This document shows positions 2,722 to 48,014 of a stretch of DNA of 57,471 nucleotides, in pieces. The notes beneath the pieces are model-generated. The model had not been told where the DNA came from. It saw only the letters and a program-made list of their open reading frames with translations, and ran no database searches. The stretch spans positions 1 through 57,471 of the forward strand of contig DAOMZV010000001.1 in assembly GCA_035400705.1 (NCBI GenBank), given 5' to 3'. Within the stretch, counting starts at the first letter, position 1, and each line of letters opens with the position of its first letter. Both the position numbers and the translations under genes were made by a program. The stretch is from Candidatus Magasanikiibacteriota bacterium. Its GTDB lineage: Bacteria > Patescibacteriota > Patescibacteriia > Magasanikbacterales > UBA10003.

Positions 2722-3381
2722 TTATTTTTTAAAAAATCTTATAATTCGCAATAATCTCACCCAAACAAAAATCCGCACCAATTGCCAATCCATTTTAATA
2801 TACCCACCCAAACCTACAAAAAAATTAGTTTTTAACATTTTTGGCAAATGATTTAAGCCTAGCAAGAGAACTGTTTTGACTCGCAAATTATTAGTAAGAC
2901 AATAATCATTTAAAGCTTCTTCTACTTGATAGCCGGTTAATAAATCTGGGGCAATAGACTCAAAAATTTCTCTTTTTAAAGCGCGTTGACCACTGATTTT
3001 AGGAATTTTTTCATTCAAAGCGTAAAAATCTTTATACTTGGGCTGAATCCCAATCACCATTTCTGCCTCCCCTTTTTCCACCGGAGAAATTAAATCTTGC
3101 AAATGTTTTTTTCTGACATTTAATAAATCGGCATCAAAAAATAACAAAATCTTATCAGTTGTTTCTCTAACTCCTACCGCCAGAGCCTCACCTTTACCTA
3201 AATTTTTAGGCAAGTTAATTACAGTCGCTCCAGCTTGCTTAGCTAAAAAAGCCGTGCGATCTTTAGAACCATCATTCACAACAATTACTTGATCAAACAA
3301 GTCCGAACGTTTTAACGCCCGTACTAAATTATAAATGGTTTTTTGTTCATTGTGAGCCGGAACGATTACCGAAACGGACAT
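2722..3381 (-). CDS. family 2 glycosyltransferase
   Basis: MSVSVIVPAHNE...VNDGSKDRT...GKGEA...FDADL. ATG at 3381 is preferred over the track's TTG at 3396. Confidence 0.75.
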   Translation of the reverse strand: MSVSVIVPAHNEQKTIYNLVRALKRSDLFDQVIVVNDGSKDRTAFLAKQAGATVINLPKNLGKGEALAVGVRETTDKILLFFDADLLNVRKKHLQDLISPVEKGEAEMVIGIQPKYKDFYALNEKIPKISGQRALKREIFESIAPDLLTGYQVEEALNDYCLTNNLRVKTVLLLGLNHLPKMLKTNFFVGLGGYIKMDWQLVRIFVWVRLLRIIRFFKK

Positions 3382-3405
3382 ATTTTTAAGAACCAAAAAA
3401 TAAAG

Positions 3406-3981
3406 TTATTTTCGCAAACTAACTTCGTAGGCAATTTCTTCTATTTTGCGACGAGCGTTTTTAGCTTGATCAAATTTGGTGCGCAAATAGCCGGTAAAAT
3501 TAAACTGCACCAAAGCTGCCATTAAATCTTCGGTTACGGTTGCTGCGCGTTTTAATTCCACCCAATTTCTTTCGGTGGCTTGTTTTAAAGCATAACGCTG
3601 AATCTCTCCTATCGCATCACTCAAACCGCCCATATAAGTTTCTGGAGAAACTTCCAAACCCTTAATTGGACCAATGGTTTCTTGATATAAAAATTGACGA
3701 TACAAATCCGCTTCGGAGTATTCTTCCATCGCTGCTTTTAAAATACCTTCGTCGTCAGCGGCAATACTTTTAGCTTGCATTTTTTGCGCCTGACTAATAC
3801 CCACCAAGGCCTGTTTTAACAACTCTTCACCGGCTTTCCAATCATTGCGATGAAAAGAAAAAATTGCTTGCTTAGATTTTTGCAAAGCATTGGCGGAAAG
3901 ATCTTGAACCTCACGACGGGACTTTTCCCACACACTAAAAACTGACTGTAATTTTTGAATGTATTTTTTGTTGACGTTCAT
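3406..3981 (-). CDS. translin-family (COG2178-like) predicted RNA-binding protein
   Basis: 191 aa, all-helical, with the motif ETYMGGLSDAIGEIQRYALKQ resembling the Y..GL.D..GEL.R signature of the archaeal translin family. Confidence 0.45.
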   Translation of the reverse strand: MNVNKKYIQKLQSVFSVWEKSRREVQDLSANALQKSKQAIFSFHRNDWKAGEELLKQALVGISQAQKMQAKSIAADDEGILKAAMEEYSEADLYRQFLYQETIGPIKGLEVSPETYMGGLSDAIGEIQRYALKQATERNWVELKRAATVTEDLMAALVQFNFTGYLRTKFDQAKNARRKIEEIAYEVSLRK

Positions 3982-4032
3982 GTAATTTTAATTAAAATTA
4001 TGAGCTTAATTATACTTAATTTTAACATAAAT

Positions 4033-4103
4033 AAAAAAAACCGGCAATCTTACGATCAGCGTTGGCTGACTTTCAGATTGCCGGTTGATCTCGTTGCGAG
4101 ATC
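4033..4103 (-). terminator. double-hairpin intrinsic terminator of the high-GC gene
   Basis: Minus strand: a 7-bp hairpin gatctcg-caa-cgagatc (4087-4103), then a 12-bp stem aaccggcaatct/agattgccggtt (4039-4050 with 4075-4086) containing an inner tcagc/gctga hairpin, followed by T8 (4033-4040). Confidence 0.75.
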
Positions 4104-4152
4104 ATGGTGGGGTTATTAGAGATTAGCACTGGGGATCGTGGAGCAGAACGGA

Positions 4153-5556
4153 TTACGCCGCGTTCTTTCCCTTCTTGGGCTGGGGCTGGCCGCGACGAGT
4201 GTCGCCGCCACCGCCCTTGCCCTTGTGGGCCTCGCGGAAGGCGCGATCCGCCTCCCGCTTGGCCGCCTTCGCCTGTTCGACAGCGGCCGGATCCATCTTG
4301 GCCCGCGTCCGTTCGGTCTTGCCCGTGTGGCGGATGACCGGACGGGCGGCGGAGTCGAAGGTCTTCTGCTGCTGGATCTGGCGCGGCGGATGGGCCGCCA
4401 GCCAGTCCTTGTGTGTCAGCGCGCAGCGGAGCTGGGCGATTACCGCCCTGCGAACCAATTCAGATTCGCCAGCGGCCTTGGCTTCCGCAACAGCGGCCTG
4501 GGCTTCGGCGATGAAATTGTCCAGGTCGGCGGAACCGACGGCGGAGAACTGCTCACGCAGCCTCCCAACATAGGCGAACCTGGCCTTTTCGGTGTACTCC
4601 TCGTACACCTGGGCCGTGATCCGTTCCTGCCAGCCTTCCACGGTCTGGCCAGCTTCGGCCTTGGCGTTCAGGAACCTGTCCATGGCGCGAGCCAGGGACA
4701 CATGATCCCAGACCTGCGATCCGTCGGCGTACGCCGCAGATTCGGACAGGATCGTGGTCACTTCAGCGATCAGCGCGTCCTGCGCCGCCTGCCGCTGAGC
4801 GGCCTCGGCTTCGCGTTCGGCGAGCCACCTCTGGGTTTCATCCCAGTGATGGAACCTTTCGGCCTTGCCGAGCAGCTTCCTGAGGCGGTTGGCCACCACC
4901 TCCTCACAGACGAAACAGAGGCGGAGGACTTTTGCCTCCGTCGCCGGGATCATCTTCCCGGTGAACATCGACTTCACGAAAACAGCACCGTCGATGTCCT
5001 TTTCCAGCGCCTTGACATCGGAAACGCGCTGAAAGTACCCGTTCGGCTGCGTCTGGATAAAGGACAGGGCGACAGCATCGTCGACCGGAATCCCGGCGCC
5101 GACGAGAACTTCCGGGTGCGCCAGTTCGTAGGCGCGGATCCGGGCCGCTTCGGCCTTGGCTTCGGCGTCGGCCTTGGCTTCGGCGTCGGCCTTGGCTTCG
5201 GCCGCGTCACTGTCGATCTTGGCCTGGATCAGTTCGAGAATCCTCGGGCCACGCGTTCCCATTTCTTCCAGCCCGACCACGAGGTCGGACTGGTCATCTT
5301 CCGTGAGAGAAAAGAACTTCTGAACGATTTCCGAGTCGGACAGGAGTCCGACCGTTTCGATCTTCAGAGCTACCGAGTCCGCATCAAGACCCAGCGCCAT
5401 TTTCAGGCGCCGGAATTCGTTTCCGGCCTTCTTGACCGCCGCGCGGAAACGCGCCTTGGCCAAGATCCCCTCGACCTCGACGGCGGCCACGGCCGCGTCG
5501 ATTTCGCTGTCGAGCATTTCCGCGAGATTCGAGAAAAACTTGTTAATCATGTCCAT
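4153..5556 (-). CDS. hypothetical protein of unknown family: Ala/Glu/Lys-rich, (AEAKAD)n repeat, basic Gly/Lys/Arg C-terminal tail
   Basis: Open frame of 467 codons, very unlikely by chance at this GC, with GC-rich third codon positions. GGAGG lies 8 nt upstream of the ATG at 5554-5556; the track's TTG at 5571 would overlap that SD. Has its own promoter and terminator. I recognise no catalytic or family motif. Confidence 0.75.
   Translation of the reverse strand: MDMINKFFSNLAEMLDSEIDAAVAAVEVEGILAKARFRAAVKKAGNEFRRLKMALGLDADSVALKIETVGLLSDSEIVQKFFSLTEDDQSDLVVGLEEMGTRGPRILELIQAKIDSDAAEAKADAEAKADAEAKAEAARIRAYELAHPEVLVGAGIPVDDAVALSFIQTQPNGYFQRVSDVKALEKDIDGAVFVKSMFTGKMIPATEAKVLRLCFVCEEVVANRLRKLLGKAERFHHWDETQRWLAEREAEAAQRQAAQDALIAEVTTILSESAAYADGSQVWDHVSLARAMDRFLNAKAEAGQTVEGWQERITAQVYEEYTEKARFAYVGRLREQFSAVGSADLDNFIAEAQAAVAEAKAAGESELVRRAVIAQLRCALTHKDWLAAHPPRQIQQQKTFDSAARPVIRHTGKTERTRAKMDPAAVEQAKAAKREADRAFREAHKGKGGGGDTRRGQPQPKKGKNAA
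5152..5205 (-). repeat. 18-bp in-frame tandem repeat (about 3 copies) encoding AEAKAD/AEAKAE
   Basis: ggccttggcttcggcgtc occurs at 5152-5169 and 5170-5187, with a diverged third copy from 5188. Confidence 0.85.
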
Positions 5557-5877: not shown

Positions 5878-5953
5878 GGCCCGGTAGCTCAGCTGGTAGA
5901 GCAACAGCCTTTTAAGCTGATGGTCCTGGGTTCGATCCCCAGCCGGGTCACCA
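5878..5953 (+). tRNA. tRNA-Lys (anticodon UUU), CCA encoded
   Basis: A 76-nt cloverleaf folded by hand: acceptor GGCCCGG/CCGGGTC, D arm GCTC-AGCTGGTA-GAGC, anticodon loop CTTTTAA, T arm CTGGG-TTCGATC-CCCAG, 3' ACCA. Confidence 0.9.
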
Positions 5954-16704: not shown

Positions 16705-18363
16705 CTATTTTTTACCTTCTTTTAGGTTTAAAACCTTAAACGAATCGCCTAAAGGCGCCAAATAAATAATTGTATTAGTTTCCATTTGTTTTAAAAACGT
16801 TGGTGTAAAAATAATTTCTAAAGAATCTCCACTGGAAATGGTTTTATCGTATCCACCGATTTGCATAATATAATCCAAGGATTCTAATTGAGATGCACCA
16901 TAAAATATTTTTTCTGTTCCTTTGGCAACAAAACTGTCATTTTTTGCCAGCCAGACTGCTCGTCCGGTGTCAGTAACCAGTAAACGAGGACGAGCAACTA
17001 ACAAGTTAGGAATATAAGTTGGATAATATAATTTAAGAGCGGCAAACCAACCGTTTCTTAAAACTTGTGCACCATAAACATTGTCAGGCAAAGTCAGAAT
17101 AACAATCCCTTGTTTTTTTTGCAAATCAACTTTTTGTCCAAAATCAAAAATCAAATTATGACTTAGTGATCCTGCTTCTTGCCAGCGCCAATTTTTTTGA
17201 ATTAAGGAACTAGATAAAAATAACATTAAAATCAAGGGCGGAAAAAATTGAAGATATTTAGTTTTGGGCCAAGTAATAATTTTATAAGACAACCAACCTA
17301 AAATTATAGCCAAACCCATGGAAGGAAGATAAGCGAATCTTTCCCCTTCGCTGGTATTTAAAATAAAAGACAAGGGCAAAACTGGCAAGGCGCCAATTAA
17401 TAAAATAATCAGGCCCAAAAGAGCAATTTTTTCTTGTCGGTATTTCTTTAAAATCAAACCAACAATTAAAAACCCCGAACCAACTAAACATAAAAAAACT
17501 GGCCAACGCATTAAGAAATTAGCCAACAGAGAACGATTATAACCGTCAATAAAATTACTATCAATTATAAGAAAAAGGGTTCGAATCAAATGAGCTGGAC
17601 TGGGTTTTAAATCAGCACTAGCGTAAAAACCAGCTAAAATATGAGTAGAATTCCAACGTAAAAACAAATAGAGAGCCAAAATAGCAACAAAAGGTACTAA
17701 ATAAAGAATTCTTTTTAAAACTCCACGCCAACCATTTTTTTTCGAATCACCAATAAATAAGATTTCATAAACTAATAAGACACCAGGTAAACTCATACCC
17801 ATTTCTTTTGATAAGGTGGACAGAAAAAAACTAAACACAGCCATCGCTAGCCACAACCATTTATTTTTTTGTCTAAATTTAACATAACCAACTAAAGACA
17901 AAATGTAAAAAAAGGCCGCTAATACATCACCGCGCCCGGAAATCCAGGTTACAGCTTCGGGGTGATTAGGTAATACTAAAAAAAATAGGCCCGACCAAAA
18001 AGCTAACCAATGTTTTTGACTAATTAAAAAAATTAACCAATAAATTATTAAAGCTGTTCCAATAAAAAACAAAATATTGGTTAAATGAAAAAACCACGGA
18101 CTAAGCCCAGCAATAGAAAAATCGACTAAATAAGATAATTGGGTCAAAGGACGAAAAACTCCTCCAACAGTACCACCATTACAATTCTTTAAAAAATAAT
18201 CGCTGAACGTATGAGGGGTAAATTTAGCTCGTGACAACCAATCAAAGTCATCAGAAACAAAAAAAGAATTTAGGACTGACGAATAAAGAGCTAGGCCCAA
18301 AATTAAATAAACTAAAACTGTAATCAAAACTGATTTATGTTTTTTGAAAAATTTTTTATTCAT
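16705..18363 (-). CDS. polytopic membrane protein, GT-C fold glycosyltransferase-like (PMT/ArnT-like)
   Basis: 552 aa with about 11 N-terminal TM helices, including a DD(F)DW loop after TM1, plus a soluble C-terminal domain. Confidence 0.5.
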   Translation of the reverse strand: MNKKFFKKHKSVLITVLVYLILGLALYSSVLNSFFVSDDFDWLSRAKFTPHTFSDYFLKNCNGGTVGGVFRPLTQLSYLVDFSIAGLSPWFFHLTNILFFIGTALIIYWLIFLISQKHWLAFWSGLFFLVLPNHPEAVTWISGRGDVLAAFFYILSLVGYVKFRQKNKWLWLAMAVFSFFLSTLSKEMGMSLPGVLLVYEILFIGDSKKNGWRGVLKRILYLVPFVAILALYLFLRWNSTHILAGFYASADLKPSPAHLIRTLFLIIDSNFIDGYNRSLLANFLMRWPVFLCLVGSGFLIVGLILKKYRQEKIALLGLIILLIGALPVLPLSFILNTSEGERFAYLPSMGLAIILGWLSYKIITWPKTKYLQFFPPLILMLFLSSSLIQKNWRWQEAGSLSHNLIFDFGQKVDLQKKQGIVILTLPDNVYGAQVLRNGWFAALKLYYPTYIPNLLVARPRLLVTDTGRAVWLAKNDSFVAKGTEKIFYGASQLESLDYIMQIGGYDKTISSGDSLEIIFTPTFLKQMETNTIIYLAPLGDSFKVLNLKEGKK

Positions 18364-20628: not shown

Positions 20629-22287
20629 TTAAATAATTTCACCTCCACCTAAACAATGACCTTTTTTATAAAAAACAACAAACTGTCCCGGAGTTACCGC
20701 TCTTTGGGCTTCTTTGAAATTAATTTTATATTTTCCTCTACTAAAATAAATTTTACATTCTTGTAAGGGCTGGCGATGACGCAACCGACAATCACAGATT
20801 AAAGGTAGTTTAGGCTCTTTTTCTATCCAATGAACCTTAGGTAAAACAATTTCCTTTTTAAACAATAATTTATCATTGGCTGCGCCCACAATTAACTGAT
20901 TCTTTTTAAAATCTTTTCCTACCACATACAATGGCTTAGTTTCACCCTTAACAGAAGGCAGCTGTAAATTCTTTTCTCCCAAATGACGCTGACCAACAGT
21001 ATAAAAAGCCAGACCATCATGCTCCCCTATTATTTTTCCTGAGCTAGTGGCTATCTTTCCTTTTTTATTTTTAATTTGACGAGAAAGAAAGTCTTTCATT
21101 GGCACCTCACCCACAAAACAAATACCCATACTTTCTTCTTTTGCTGCCACTGGCAAACCCCAACTCGTAGCAAAAACCCTAACTTCATTTTTATTAGTTG
21201 TTCCTAGTGGAAATAATAATTTCTTTAATTCTTTCTGACCTAATTGATGTAAGAAATAAGTTTGATCTTTGTTTGCATCAACTGACTGATATAAACAAAC
21301 TTCGCCGTGTGAACCATCTTTAATACGAGCATAATGACCAGTAGCCACCCAATCAAAACCCAACTTTTTAGCTTCTTTTAACAGGAGTGGTATTTTAACG
21401 TATTTATTACACATCACGTCGGGGTTAGGTGTGCGACCGGCACGATACTGTTTAAATAAATAACCGACTACATCTTTTTTATATTGTAATTCAAAATCAA
21501 AAGTTAAAAGTTTAATGCCAAGTTTAGCGGCTACTCGCAAAGCATCGCGCCGTTCGTCAATCCAACAAGATTTAGATCCTACATTGTCGCTAAAACATTT
21601 AATAAAAGCACCAGTAACCTCAAAACCGGCTTTAATCAGATAACCAGCTGCTACTGCCGAATCAACCCCTCCAGACATAGCTACTAAAACTTTTTTCTTT
21701 TTAGGTAAAACTTGGGGTAGATAAGCCGCATAAACAGATAATAACTTTTTATCTTTTAGCATCTTTTTAGCTGTCGGACTGACCAAGCGTTCGGCTCGAT
21801 TTAAATTGGCTACCACACCAAATAATAAGCTTTGCCAATCATGAGCATGAAACTGCTTACCCCTTTCAATTCCATGTTCACCAAATAAATCTAATTTATC
21901 CGCATCGCGTAATAAAGCTGCCGTAGCATAGTCGTTAGCTAGTTCAGTCCAATGATTTCGGACATTATATAAAATCTCCTGTTTTTCCTTATCAGTTAAA
22001 ACAGCAAATTTTTTATCTTTTTTAAACCATTGATCGGCCAACAAATAAGAAAGTTCATGATGACGCAAACCGGTTGGATTTTTTTTCCATTCAGTCACTC
22101 TACCAATATCGTGCAATAAAGCAGACATTTCTAAAATGCCTCTTGATTCTTTTTCTCCTTGCGCAATTTCTTTAGCATACCCCCAAACTTTTTCAACATG
22201 AGCCCAACCATGAGCAGGAGCCGTTCCTTGCAAAAAAAATTTTTCCACTTTTTGGGCGGTATAATTAATTAGCTTACTATCAATCAT
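20629..22287 (-). CDS. mnmA: HD-domain phosphohydrolase fused to tRNA-specific 2-thiouridylase MnmA
   Basis: Residues 1 to about 190 are an HD domain (HGWAHVEKV...SALLHDIGR...RDADKLD). From about residue 197: VLVAMSGGVDSAVAA PP-loop, MCNKYVKIP, ATGHYAR, KDQTYFL. Confidence 0.85.
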   Translation of the reverse strand: MIDSKLINYTAQKVEKFFLQGTAPAHGWAHVEKVWGYAKEIAQGEKESRGILEMSALLHDIGRVTEWKKNPTGLRHHELSYLLADQWFKKDKKFAVLTDKEKQEILYNVRNHWTELANDYATAALLRDADKLDLFGEHGIERGKQFHAHDWQSLLFGVVANLNRAERLVSPTAKKMLKDKKLLSVYAAYLPQVLPKKKKVLVAMSGGVDSAVAAGYLIKAGFEVTGAFIKCFSDNVGSKSCWIDERRDALRVAAKLGIKLLTFDFELQYKKDVVGYLFKQYRAGRTPNPDVMCNKYVKIPLLLKEAKKLGFDWVATGHYARIKDGSHGEVCLYQSVDANKDQTYFLHQLGQKELKKLLFPLGTTNKNEVRVFATSWGLPVAAKEESMGICFVGEVPMKDFLSRQIKNKKGKIATSSGKIIGEHDGLAFYTVGQRHLGEKNLQLPSVKGETKPLYVVGKDFKKNQLIVGAANDKLLFKKEIVLPKVHWIEKEPKLPLICDCRLRHRQPLQECKIYFSRGKYKINFKEAQRAVTPGQFVVFYKKGHCLGGGEII

Positions 22288-34272: not shown

Positions 34273-34647
34273 ATGAACAAAACAAATAAATTTATTTACT
34301 GGACTCCGAGAGCTTTATCTATATTTTTTATCCTTTTTTTAATGTTATTTTCTTTAGACATTTTTGATTTAAACTTAAATTTTTGGCAAACTATTTTGGG
34401 TTTACTGGTCCATAACATTCCAGCCTTTATTTTAATAATCATTCTTGTAATTTCTTGGAAAAAAGAGGCGGTGGGCGGAATTATTTTTACTTTATTTGGA
34501 GCGTTTTTTCTTGGTCGAATGTTAATGACAATTCTAAGCCATCCGCCTTACGAATGGCGAATACTCTTGGGAATATCACCGATTATTCTTCCGGCTATTT
34601 TGATTGGAGTTTTATTTTTAATCGGTTGGCAGAAAAAAATAAAATAA
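34273..34647 (+). CDS. integral membrane protein, unknown function
   Basis: 124 aa with 4 predicted TM helices, followed by a hairpin/T-tract at about 34663-34692. Confidence 0.5.
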   Translation: MNKTNKFIYWTPRALSIFFILFLMLFSLDIFDLNLNFWQTILGLLVHNIPAFILIIILVISWKKEAVGGIIFTLFGAFFLGRMLMTILSHPPYEWRILLGISPIILPAILIGVLFLIGWQKKIK

Positions 34648-38357: not shown

Positions 38358-39092
38358 TTATTTTTGAACCAAAGCAATAATATTATAACTTTTTTTTAAA
38401 TCGGTAACAAAATTACCATTGGCATCACCATAACCGATTTTTATTTTTTTAAATCCGACTGATTGTAATAATTTTTTTAATTCTTCTTTATCAAAACTAT
38501 ATAAATATCTTTGCACGGTTATCTTAGGTGTCGCCTTCCACGGAGTTAACAAATCTTTTTCACTCCAACTTGAAGGATTTTTTTTCAATTGTTCTTTAAT
38601 CTTGAATTTATTTTCTGCGTATGAAGTATATAAATTCCAAACAGAAATAACTCCGTGTCCCTTGGGTTTGAGGACCCGATAAATTTCTTTAACTGACTGT
38701 TCTTGCAGTTCTTTAGATGGTATATGATGTAAAACAGCCAAAGCCAAAACCCAGTCAAACAGTTGATCTTCAAAAGGTAAATTAATTATATTACCTTTAA
38801 CCAATTTGACTTTTTGATTTCGCCCCAACTTAGGAATTCTTTTTTTGGCTAATTTTAAAAGATTACCGCTTAAATCCAAACCGGTATAATCAATTGACTT
38901 GGAAGCCAAACAATCGTATAATACAGCATTGCCACAACCTACATCCAAAACCCTATCTCCTTTTTTAATACCACCAGTAGTTTTAATTTGATAAGGACGC
39001 GGGGTACTGCGGGTCAAATTCCATTCTTTGGCAATAAGATTATAATCTTTCTCCACTTTTTTTAAAACTTTTTTAGCTGCAACTAAATCCAT
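38358..39092 (-). CDS. class I SAM-dependent methyltransferase, Trm9/ALKBH8-MT-like (inferred)
   Basis: YNLIAKEWNLTRSTPRP, VLDVGCGNA, LPFEDQLFDWVLALAVLHHIPSKELQEQSVKEIYRVLKPKGHGVISVWNL. This resembles the ..IA..F..TR..PW / ..HH.st.e.R..a..E..RVL.PGG...i.vWa pattern of Trm9-type enzymes. Confidence 0.55.
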   Translation of the reverse strand: MDLVAAKKVLKKVEKDYNLIAKEWNLTRSTPRPYQIKTTGGIKKGDRVLDVGCGNAVLYDCLASKSIDYTGLDLSGNLLKLAKKRIPKLGRNQKVKLVKGNIINLPFEDQLFDWVLALAVLHHIPSKELQEQSVKEIYRVLKPKGHGVISVWNLYTSYAENKFKIKEQLKKNPSSWSEKDLLTPWKATPKITVQRYLYSFDKEELKKLLQSVGFKKIKIGYGDANGNFVTDLKKSYNIIALVQK

Positions 39093-39097
39093 AAAAC

Positions 39098-40681
39098 ATG
39101 TTATCTGAATTAATTAAAAAACTTTTACAAGAAAAAGAATTAACGCGGGAAAAAATTGATTCTTTAAAACGTCTCTACGCTAATGAACACAAAGCGGTTT
39201 TCCCGACCACAGCCGAACTTTTAAAAGAATATCGACGTCTTTTGAAATTAAAAAAAATTCAATCTTCGTCTACTTTAGAAAAAATTCTCCAAAAACGATC
39301 TGTCCGCACTCTTTCTGGGGTAGCCATTGTCACTGTTTTAACCAAACCTTGGCCTTGTCCGGGAAAATGTATTTACTGTCCGCTAGAAAAAGAAATGCCC
39401 AAAAGCTATCTTAAGAACGAACCAGCAGCTCAACGAGCTTATTTTAACAATTTTAACCCTTATAATCAAGTTTTTTCTCGCCTTAAAATGCTTTATAATA
39501 ATGGTCACCCTACAGACAAAGTTGAATTAATTGTTAAAGGAGGAAGCTGGAATAGTTATTCTTGGAGTTATCAAAGATGGTTTATCAAAGAATGTTTTAG
39601 AGCCTGCAATAATTTCCCTCAGCAAACTAAACCCAAATTAAATTTAGGTTCAGACCAAGATCTTTTAAAACAACAAAAAACTAATGAAAAAGCTGGTTCT
39701 AGAATTGTTGGACTAACCCTAGAAACACGTCCAGATTTAATCACGCTTAAAACAATCACCCAAATGCGTCTTTTAGGTTGCACAAGAATTGAACTTGGCG
39801 TCCAGCACACTGATGATAAAATTTTAAATTTGACTAAACGAGGACATACCTTAGAGCAAGCCAAACAAGCTGCGAGACTTTTGCGTCGCTATGGCTTTAA
39901 ATTAGATTTTCATTTAATGCCCCAACTTCCCGGCACCACTCCGACTAAAGATTATCAGATGATTAAACAAATTTTTTCTGACCCCGATTTAAAACCGGAT
40001 ATGATTAAAATTTATCCCTGTTCGGTGGTTAAACATTCAGAATTATATACTTGGTTTAAAAAGGGTCTGTTTAAACCGTACGCTGACAAAAAGTTGATTG
40101 AAATGTTAATTAAAGTAAAAAGCCAACTTATTCCGCGTTATTGTCGAATCTCACGTTTAATCAGAGATATTCCTGCCACTGAAATTATAGCCGGCAACAA
40201 AGTTACTAATCTTCGAGAGACTATTCAAAAAACCATGAAGAGAAAAGGATTACTTTGTTCTTGCTTGCGTTGCCGAGAAATTGGACATCACCCAGAATTA
40301 AAAAATAAAACCCTGCCTCTTAAAATTTTTATTGACCAATACTCTGCTTCCAAAGGTCAAGAATATTTTTTAAGTTTTGAAGATGCCAAACGTCAAACTG
40401 TCTATGGTTTTTGCCGCTTGAGAATTGATCCGGAGGGTTTTTTTCCAGCCTTTATCCGTGAACTCCATGTCTATGGGCAATTGGTTGAAATAGGCAGACA
40501 ACAAAAAGACGCTAGCCAACATTTAGGTTTAGGAAAAAAGCTAATAGCGGCTGCGGAAAAAATCTGCCGAGAAAATGATGTTAAACAGTTGGCAATTATT
40601 TCTGGTGTAGGAGTACGTGGTTATTATAAAAAATTGGGTTATCACTTACAAAAAACCTATTTGGTCAAAAAAATAGACTAA
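39098..40681 (+). CDS. elp3: Elongator Elp3-type radical SAM / GNAT acetyltransferase (tRNA U34 carboxymethylation family)
   Basis: Radical-SAM cluster CPGKCIYCP, ELIVKGGSW, GLTLETRPD, RIELGVQ, and a C-terminal GNAT domain ...HLGLGKKLIAAAEKI...GVGVRGYYKKLGY. Confidence 0.85.
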   Translation: MLSELIKKLLQEKELTREKIDSLKRLYANEHKAVFPTTAELLKEYRRLLKLKKIQSSSTLEKILQKRSVRTLSGVAIVTVLTKPWPCPGKCIYCPLEKEMPKSYLKNEPAAQRAYFNNFNPYNQVFSRLKMLYNNGHPTDKVELIVKGGSWNSYSWSYQRWFIKECFRACNNFPQQTKPKLNLGSDQDLLKQQKTNEKAGSRIVGLTLETRPDLITLKTITQMRLLGCTRIELGVQHTDDKILNLTKRGHTLEQAKQAARLLRRYGFKLDFHLMPQLPGTTPTKDYQMIKQIFSDPDLKPDMIKIYPCSVVKHSELYTWFKKGLFKPYADKKLIEMLIKVKSQLIPRYCRISRLIRDIPATEIIAGNKVTNLRETIQKTMKRKGLLCSCLRCREIGHHPELKNKTLPLKIFIDQYSASKGQEYFLSFEDAKRQTVYGFCRLRIDPEGFFPAFIRELHVYGQLVEIGRQQKDASQHLGLGKKLIAAAEKICRENDVKQLAIISGVGVRGYYKKLGYHLQKTYLVKKID

Positions 40682-40710: not shown

Positions 40711-41229
40711 TTAGTCTTCATCATGAGGATGAGCAAAAGCTGCCATTAAAAAAATCGGGGTGACAAACCAGACAAATCTACCCCAAGAACTTAAAAAAAT
40801 TTTTTGAACTGCCAGGGAAAAAATATTAACAATTGATGCGGGCAAAAAAGACAAAATCACACTAACCAAAAGACCGAGCTGAAAAAAAGCTAAAACAAAA
40901 GCCGACCAACGACCAGAAACAAAACCTCCTTGAACAAAAGTTTTCCCTAAAATACCGCGCACCAAAAGAAAAAATAAAACAAAAAAACTAATAGTAAAAA
41001 AGATCACCTGATTTACAGATTTAGAAGTTTCCGAAATTAGACCAATAAAAGGAGTATAAGCTAAAACACCCAGGGTTACATAAATGGAGGTCAAAAATAA
41101 TAAAACCCGCTTCCGACCTAAAATTGAAGTATACAAAAAACTAGCTGCTAATAAACAAAAAAACAGCCAAACATCTGCTCCCAAACCTAGGGCAGATATT
41201 TTAGTAAAAAAATTAGATAAGAACTCCAT
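40711..41229 (-). CDS. integral membrane protein, unknown function
   Basis: 172 aa with about 5 TM helices. Confidence 0.5.
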   Translation of the reverse strand: MEFLSNFFTKISALGLGADVWLFFCLLAASFLYTSILGRKRVLLFLTSIYVTLGVLAYTPFIGLISETSKSVNQVIFFTISFFVLFFLLVRGILGKTFVQGGFVSGRWSAFVLAFFQLGLLVSVILSFLPASIVNIFSLAVQKIFLSSWGRFVWFVTPIFLMAAFAHPHDED

Positions 41230-47477: not shown

Positions 47478-48014
47478 TTATTTTTTAGGCAAAGAATAAA
47501 CACAGCCACAATAATTTTGCCGATAAATTCCCCTGTCCTCAATCATCTGCCTTGCTTTTTCTTGTCGCCCATTTTTCTTCCAATCTTCGGCATAAAATTT
47601 TACATTAAATTTTTTTGCCGCATTTTCTGCAATTGGGAAAATTACTACTGCACTTTTGTTTCTCCCGCTAGTCAAAGTAGTAGAAAAATTTTTAAACCCG
47701 TACTGCCTAGCATATTCAGCTGCCACGTTGATGCGTAGCGCAAAACATTTTTGACATCGCGCCCCACCTTCTGACTCACCATCCAATCCTGCAACTTCCT
47801 TGTTCCATTTCTCTTGCTCATAGTCCCAATCAATCATCGCCACACCCCATTCCTGACAAACTTTTATCACTTCGCTTTTTCTTTTTAAATATTCCTCTTT
47901 AGGAAAAATGTTGGGGTTATAAAAAAAGACAGAAACTTCAAACTTGGGTCGTAATTCATCAATCACAGCAATACTGCAAGGAGCGCAACAGGTATGTAAT
48001 AAAATTTTTTTCAT
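47478..48014 (-). CDS. queH: epoxyqueuosine reductase QueH (DUF208 family)
   Basis: MKKILLHTCCAPCS..., ...YNPNI.P..EY..R, and a C-terminal Y.Q.YCGC motif. Confidence 0.75.
   Translation of the reverse strand: MKKILLHTCCAPCSIAVIDELRPKFEVSVFFYNPNIFPKEEYLKRKSEVIKVCQEWGVAMIDWDYEQEKWNKEVAGLDGESEGGARCQKCFALRINVAAEYARQYGFKNFSTTLTSGRNKSAVVIFPIAENAAKKFNVKFYAEDWKKNGRQEKARQMIEDRGIYRQNYCGCVYSLPKK

Follow-up and report, generated by a model that had tools for sequence, protein, structure and literature searches.

The window analysed here, a 57,471-nt stretch of DNA from a Candidatus Magasanikiibacteriota bacterium (contig DAOMZV010000001.1), carries a head-to-head gene pair encoding Elp3 and a Trm9-like methyltransferase. 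We consider it likely that this pair represents, in a bacterium, an Elongator-type pathway of wobble-uridine modification, organized as a divergent and conserved gene module. By homology, the stand-alone Elp3 would add a carboxymethyl group to C5 of uridine 34 (U34) of tRNA by means of radical S-adenosylmethionine (SAM) chemistry and acetyl-CoA, producing 5-carboxymethyluridine (cm5U). Judged by its catalytic residues and its linkage to Elp3, the methyltransferase, a Trm9 homolog, would then use SAM to methyl-esterify cm5U to 5-methoxycarbonylmethyluridine (mcm5U). Finally, an MnmA protein fused to an HD domain may add the 2-thio group in tRNAs such as tRNA-Lys(UUU), yielding 5-methoxycarbonylmethyl-2-thiouridine (mcm5s2U).

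The methyltransferase gene occupies positions 38358-39092 on the minus strand and encodes a predicted class I SAM enzyme of 244 aa that would convert cm5U34 to mcm5U34. Elp3, at 39098-40681 on the plus strand, is a 527-aa protein with radical-SAM and GNAT/KAT domains and the predicted former of cm5U34. Both open reading frames (ORFs) start with ATG and were found where the original prediction had placed them, the two start codons being separated by the 5 nt AAAAC (39093-39097, assigned to neither strand). The Elp3 ATG is preceded directly by an in-frame TAA at 39092-39094, and Met1 of the methyltransferase is nearly invariant among 42 homologs; thus, both starts are well defined. The closest relatives belong to Candidatus Magasanikbacteria, a group of the candidate phyla radiation (CPR; Patescibacteria), and a genome of that name (locus L081) displays the same synteny.

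Linkage between Elp3 and the methyltransferase is strong in both directions. A genome scan with the methyltransferase profile, using one genome per species, returned 80 loci, of which 66 contained a full-length match. Elp3 was present at 51 of these 66 loci, and at 49 it lay immediately upstream in divergent orientation. Eight of the 15 loci lacking Elp3 were too short upstream to judge, leaving 58 evaluable loci. Elp3 therefore adjoined the methyltransferase at 51/58 family loci versus 0/14 generic controls (p = 4e-10), the controls being loci of Streptomyces, Pseudoalteromonas, Intestinibacter and others that matched the SAM-binding core only. The reverse scan considered 80 metagenome loci chosen by the Elp3 profile alone; a single-sequence query gave nothing and an alignment-based query worked. 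Among the 69 evaluable loci of this set, 56 contained the methyltransferase, with 53 scored as divergent and upstream. From the CPR, the lineages represented were Saccharibacteria, Paceibacterota and several more named groups; Anaerolineae and other Chloroflexota were represented as well, and single loci were labelled Fermentibacteria and Pirellulales. Conserved linkage to elp3, on which the original prediction hung, thus holds in CPR and Chloroflexota whichever gene is used for selection. The methyltransferase family itself is large: after clustering at 50% identity, about 1,830 representatives match it at E <= 1e-30.

These counts bear on whether the methyltransferase could serve an unrelated process, for instance as first gene of a murC-murB unit, with Elp3 its neighbour merely through the gene order of a compact genome. 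On the minus strand, murC begins 11 nt downstream of the methyltransferase and is followed by murB, an order also seen in Magasanikbacteria relatives, and the best NCBIfam matches of the methyltransferase are quinone and arsenite methyltransferases. However, the murC context is lineage-specific whereas Elp3 adjacency spans distant phyla, and the generic methyltransferases recovered by the same scan had no Elp3 neighbour. All NCBIfam matches also fall far under their cut-offs. Identity as a UbiE/MenG quinone methyltransferase was rejected, since the best match reached 65 bits where the cut-off is 235, and the matches span the SAM-binding core only. An unrelated role is accordingly quite improbable.

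Comparison of the methyltransferase (headed METHYLTRANSFERASE) with protein families supports its placement with Trm9. The motifs that had suggested a resemblance to Trm9/ALKBH8-type enzymes (IAKEW.LTR, LAVLHHIPS and SVWNL) are all present. Pfam yields generic methyltransferase domains only, and genuine named fungal Trm9 proteins receive the same generic matches, so Pfam and NCBIfam are undecisive between Trm9 and Methyltransf_11. The 25 NCBIfam models that matched the methyltransferase best included none for CmoM. In a single-sequence search of the PDB, Yarrowia Trm9 (5cm2_Z) was the sole match aligned along residues 31-225, beyond the SAM-binding core, and with a family profile of 42 sequences this chain became the top match (96 bits, E = 1.3e-26, chain residues 2-185 of 205). 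We also built a hidden Markov model (HMM) from 55 fungal Trm9 proteins and ran it on every ORF of the window and the 80 loci (1,981 in total). The window methyltransferase scored 77.4 bits (E = 9e-23) and was the sole match in the window; Elp3-linked CPR methyltransferases scored 74-112 bits versus 14-48 bits for generic methyltransferases of the same genome scan. The profile check proposed in the original prediction, Trm9 against Methyltransf_11, therefore gave no separation with Pfam and gave one with the fungal HMM (77 versus 14-48 bits), and the Trm9-like claim is upheld by the family profile, the fungal HMM and the conserved residues described below, with Pfam unable to discriminate.

Trm9 residues that are needed for activity or modelled at the cm5U site are known from structural work (PMC4678810), and nine of the ten that we mapped are kept in the window methyltransferase. 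Residues Y18, R29, D72, H115 and H116 of ScTrm9 correspond to Y17, R28, D73, H122 and H123 of the window protein, while W145, W168, R241 and N271 correspond to W152, W185, R195 and N237. With the exception of the N237 position, these nine are invariant in 14 bacterial homologs. An AlphaFold2 model of the methyltransferase had a predicted local distance difference test score of 94.5. When this model was compared with the PDB by Foldseek, Trm9 came out with the highest target TM-score (0.80) and the smallest root-mean-square deviation (3.7 A) at 24% identity. Foldseek was nonetheless discarded as a discriminator, class I methyltransferases not being separated by it.

The partner protein is a full-length member of the Elp3 family, as claimed from the outset. 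It matches TIGR01211 with 543.4 bits (cut-off 350), residues 5-526 aligning with positions 2-522 of the 522-position profile. PDB matches were headed by M. infernus Elp3 (402 bits), followed by D. mccartyi Elp3 (375 bits) and eukaryotic Elp3 (approximately 280 bits). All signature motifs are in place. The radical-SAM triad of the motif C87PGKC91IYC94, the prokaryote-type zinc-site cysteines C387xC389xxC392 of the linker and the acetyl-CoA motif Q474-H-x-G-x-G are each invariant in 30 Elp3 sequences, and the Pfam Acetyltransf_1 domain covers residues 418-515, corresponding to the predicted C-terminal GNAT/KAT domain. The N-terminal extension is basic, with 15 K/R within the first 65 aa. Published work has tied such a basic extension to tRNA binding, described the roles of the zinc cysteines and of the N-terminal extension, and demonstrated that acetyl-CoA hydrolysis by bacterial Elp3 is triggered by tRNA (PMC6367351). 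The M. infernus protein, closest to window Elp3, likewise combines an extended basic N-terminus with a CxCxxC zinc site; its triad is spaced CX4CX2C as opposed to CX3CX2C in the window. To our knowledge, an archaeal Elp3 is the only one for which formation of cm5U has been demonstrated in vitro.

The historical annotation of Elp3 as a histone acetyltransferase and the weak in vitro activity of D. mccartyi Elp3 (DmcElp3) (PMC7663514) could be taken to mean that the window protein acetylates mainly proteins or other acceptors instead of acting on tRNA, with the methyltransferase modifying the same non-tRNA target. We regard this as very improbable: Elp3 sits among tRNA-modification genes at loci L096 and L105, and in its methyltransferase partner the residues with which Trm9 binds the tRNA nucleoside are retained. 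At L096 (1770-7800), Elp3 is flanked by MnmA, a MiaB-type radical-SAM enzyme and Dus. At L105 (1388-4043), MnmA starts 2 nt past the Elp3 stop codon and the methyltransferase diverges from Elp3.

The window also encodes the two further components that the original prediction had drawn into an mcm5s2U-like pathway. A protein at 20629-22287 on the minus strand is a likely thiolation partner, composed of an HD (metal-dependent phosphohydrolase) domain in its N-terminal 198 aa (E = 3.7e-10) and an MnmA (tRNA 2-thiouridine(34) synthase) domain at residues 199-551 (NF001138, 393.5 bits, cut-off 284). The candidate substrate, tRNA-Lys(UUU), was located by ARAGORN at 5878-5953 on the plus strand, and its proposed role derives from the set of eukaryotic tRNAs that carry mcm5s2U (PMC6367351). 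The presence of MnmA 17 kb from the pair is weak evidence by itself; the Elp3-adjacent MnmA genes of L096 and L105 are better. Another enzyme of tRNA wobble modification in the window is QueH (epoxyqueuosine reductase; 47478-48014, minus strand; PF02677, E = 2e-61).

The tight head-to-head junction is characteristic of the pair in general and no peculiarity of the window. It turned up in two independent sequence collections, and chance hardly explains it. Using uniform, crude ORF calling throughout, we found a gap of 5 nt or less at 47/92 pair-like junctions compared with 10/103 other divergent neighbours on the same contigs (Fisher p = 2e-10), with median gaps of 5 and 140 nt, respectively. 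The Magasanikbacteria relatives have gaps of 3-5 nt. The commonest spacing overall is -2, at which the two start codons share bases within the palindrome CATG. There are 31 loci with this arrangement, 14 from genomes and 17 from metagenomes (examples are L001:6000-6003, L003:5416-5419 and L098:3937-3940). Abutting or overlapping starts imply that at least one promoter lies inside the partner gene or that mRNAs are leaderless. At 15 of 29 CATG junctions a TAnnnT hexamer is found exactly at -12 to -7 before the Elp3 ATG. As a signal for leaderless transcripts the hexamer fits in position. However, methyltransferase codons K3-E4-Y5 confound the pattern and the window lacks the hexamer; consequently, this explanation was not adopted. 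One locus lacking the methyltransferase, L158, pairs an S49-family peptidase (3004-4002, minus strand) with Elp3 (4001-5527, plus strand), and their divergent starts also overlap as CATG. Overlapping divergent starts are thus not exclusive to the Elp3/methyltransferase pair.

In the window, Shine-Dalgarno (SD)-like motifs were detected within 25 nt upstream of only 1/54 genes (ORFs of at least 100 aa). Upstream regions are A/T-rich and overall G+C content is 35.6%. These data suggest that translation initiation in this host is SD-independent, and the lack of room for an SD sequence at the junction is therefore nothing special.

A sigma-70-like promoter for Elp3 is predicted within the methyltransferase gene at 38894-38922 on the plus strand, comprising a -35 hexamer TTGACT (38894-38899) and a -10 hexamer TATAAT (38917-38922) separated by 17 nt. 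The element matches 11 of 12 consensus positions and precedes the Elp3 ATG by 176 nt. Among five Magasanikbacteria, with methyltransferase identities of 61-86%, neither hexamer changes, and the spacer varies in sequence while remaining constant in length. Within the hexamers, synonymous sites do not vary and hold codons that this genome does not prefer (Val-GTA 22%, Lys-AAG 23%, Ser-TCA 11%), and flanking synonymous sites just outside the hexamers vary. In five sequences such conservation is suggestive only. Based on the position of the -10 hexamer, Elp3 mRNA would begin with a leader of roughly 169 nt (38929-39097, plus strand) antisense to methyltransferase codons 1-55, that is, to the 5' end of the gene. 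In Magasanikbacteria, Elp3 appears to have a conserved promoter some 176 nt into the methyltransferase gene, and the antisense leader could couple expression of the two genes.

The original prediction had put each promoter inside the opposite gene, and only the Elp3 half of that proposal found a counterpart. For the methyltransferase, no conserved promoter element was found within the first 300 nt of Elp3. A conserved TTTTTTAATTA block was considered for this role and set aside; it is antisense to the Elp3 codons for ELIKKLL, which renders it uninterpretable. A minus-strand sigma-70-like match at 39066-39039 was likewise dismissed, being located inside the methyltransferase gene and not conserved.

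Several observations weigh against assigning the pair to an Elongator-type pathway. In the PDB profile search, the match next to Trm9, PH0226, scored 88 bits, only 8 bits lower. With the fungal HMM, Elp3-linked methyltransferases of Chloroflexota score no higher than 26-66 bits, so that they overlap with generic enzymes, and Foldseek ranks Trm9 sixth, many class I methyltransferases having similar scores. The tenth mapped residue, Y243 of ScTrm9, is replaced by L197 in the window and by V, L or I in most bacterial homologs; a Y243A mutant of ScTrm9 retains about 10% activity. Trm112 is a further concern, since no Trm112-like zinc-knuckle ORF was found in the window and a search beside the pair in the 80 loci produced only unconvincing pattern matches. 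For the embedded promoter, conservation was assessed on five sequences, and constraint on the coding sequence confounds it (Fisher p = 0.13). Finally, a review of Elongator states that there is no direct evidence of xcm5U nucleosides in bacteria (PMC7663514).

The altered Y243 position, variation of the N271 equivalent in some family members, the lack of a Trm112 gene in the window or beside the pair, and an identity to Trm9 of only about 24% would also fit a methyltransferase that is tied to Elp3 but has a product other than mcm5U. Such an enzyme might methylate a different atom of the cm5 side chain or a different tRNA position, or accept cm5s2U only, and the final nucleoside would then differ from the eukaryotic one. 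Against this, the window protein retains residues modelled as holding the cm5U carboxylate (R29, Y18, R241 and H116 in ScTrm9 numbering) as well as those modelled as holding the uracil ring (H115, N271 and W145). We judge a different product to be unlikely and favour formation of mcm5U.

As a probable mcm5U-forming system, the pair can be compared with several known ones. Trm9-Trm112 of yeast and Yarrowia and the methyltransferase domain of human ALKBH8 have in common with the window methyltransferase a class I SAM fold, an N-terminal helix Y..IA..(F/W)..TR, and HH, VW, PW, RY and C-terminal N motifs, and both would act downstream of Elp3. In contrast, the residue equivalent to Y243 is hydrophobic in the window protein. 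Eukaryotic Trm9 needs Trm112, whereas the window pair has no Trm112 gene nearby, and the window methyltransferase may therefore work alone. Gene layout also differs, eukaryotic Elp3 and Trm9 genes being unlinked and the window genes head-to-head. A closer parallel exists in archaea, which likewise possess a stand-alone Elp3 and a Trm9-type methyltransferase with clustered genes: Elp3 and a putative Trm9 are encoded together in Sulfolobus, and the Haloferax protein is HVO_1032 (PMC5372719). The window host, however, is bacterial, and its thiolation would be carried out by MnmA, not by an Ncs6/Urm1-type system. The same review, devoted to Trm112, considered bacterial homologs of Trm112-dependent methyltransferases undetectable and noted Elp3/Trm9 clustering only in Sulfolobus (PMC5372719).

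Among bacterial proteins, the characterised D. mccartyi Elp3 (PDB 5L7J) is also stand-alone and has the same domains as window Elp3, but it is without the ~65-residue N-terminal extension, the alignment beginning at window residue 66. This protein has been described as a rare bacterial case restricted to a single Dehalococcoides clade (PMC6367351, PMC7663514). The MnmE/MnmG/MnmC pathway, which generates 5-(carboxy)methylaminomethyluridine ((c)mnm5U34), serves the same tRNA position and role (xm5(s2)U34) as the Elp3 pair and has MnmA in common with it, yet the C5 side-chain chemistry and the enzymes are entirely different. E. coli CmoM is a bacterial SAM methyltransferase that esterifies the carboxyl group of a wobble-uridine side chain, converting uridine 5-oxyacetic acid (cmo5U) to its methyl ester (mcmo5U). 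Its substrate side chain is oxyacetic acid, unlike that of cm5U. Relative to these systems, the variant features of the window pair are its bacterial host, possible Trm112 independence, MnmA as thiolase, and abutting start codons.

Our literature search retrieved no paper on a bacterial Elp3-Trm9 pair or on Elongator-type modification in CPR, and none of use on MnmE/MnmG in that group, with many subscription-journal papers outside its coverage and an earlier mention possible. The linkage data suggest that these lineages commonly have a pathway that has been described as all but missing from bacteria. If the proposed function is correct, Elongator-type xcm5U chemistry, combined with MnmA, would be a mainstream means of wobble decoding in a large part of the bacterial tree. 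Members of the methyltransferase family are currently annotated as 'class I SAM-dependent methyltransferase' or 'UbiE', and given such generic names a specific one would correct many records. The pair additionally offers biochemists a minimal and possibly Trm112-independent Elp3/Trm9 system, and provides an example from nature of divergent genes whose start codons abut or overlap.

Thirteen evaluable Elp3 loci had no methyltransferase, and in two of them a protein of ~260 aa adjoins Elp3 (L152:2973-3761 and L093:6302-7228, both minus strand). This protein consists of the synthetase half of asparagine synthetase only, a PP-loop domain that adenylates and amidates a carboxylate. It has no glutaminase domain and scores under the asparagine-synthase cut-offs. 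Five further CPR homologs, 45-60% identical (L163-L166 and L172, from position 4001 or 5001), are all adjacent to Elp3: three diverge from it, and the other two run in the same direction, the stop codon of one gene overlapping the start codon of the next. The asparagine-synthetase-like protein is thus next to Elp3 in 7/7 CPR contexts examined. None of the seven loci contains a Trm9-like gene, and conversely the protein occurs at 0/107 Elp3 loci that contain the methyltransferase. For the distant archaeal homologs L170 and L171, linkage to Elp3 was looked for and rejected. At L171 (4228-5900, plus strand; Woesearchaeota), the homolog directly follows a Trm5/Tyw2-type tRNA methyltransferase, the boundary base being common to both genes. 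A class I aminoacyl-tRNA synthetase (Pfam tRNA-synt_1) and a pseudouridine synthase are encoded close by, and Elp3 is missing within 5 kb.

ATP-dependent amidation of cm5U to 5-carbamoylmethyluridine (ncm5U) would fit the asparagine-synthetase-like protein, a hypothesis drawn from seven loci. The mechanism of ncm5U formation was referred to as 'yet unknown' in 2019 (PMC6367351), and our literature search yielded no paper linking asparagine synthase with ncm5U or Elp3, nor a later one naming an ncm5U enzyme. If the hypothesis is true, this protein becomes a candidate for the ncm5U-forming activity. More broadly, and quite tentatively, CPR and some Chloroflexota might have replaced MnmE/MnmG with a modular Elp3 system having interchangeable finishing enzymes, Trm9-like for mcm5(s2)U or asparagine-synthetase-type for ncm5U, in which the CATG overlap would reflect antisense-coupled or leaderless co-expression.

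Among other genes of the window, neither a 552-aa ORF at 16705-18363 (minus strand) nor a 172-aa hydrophobic ORF at 40711-41229 (minus strand), just downstream of Elp3, had a Pfam or NCBIfam match. Genes of the window are almost entirely on the minus strand. Elp3 is among the few plus-strand exceptions, as is a DUF7670 protein encoded at 34273-34647 (E = 2.5e-29).

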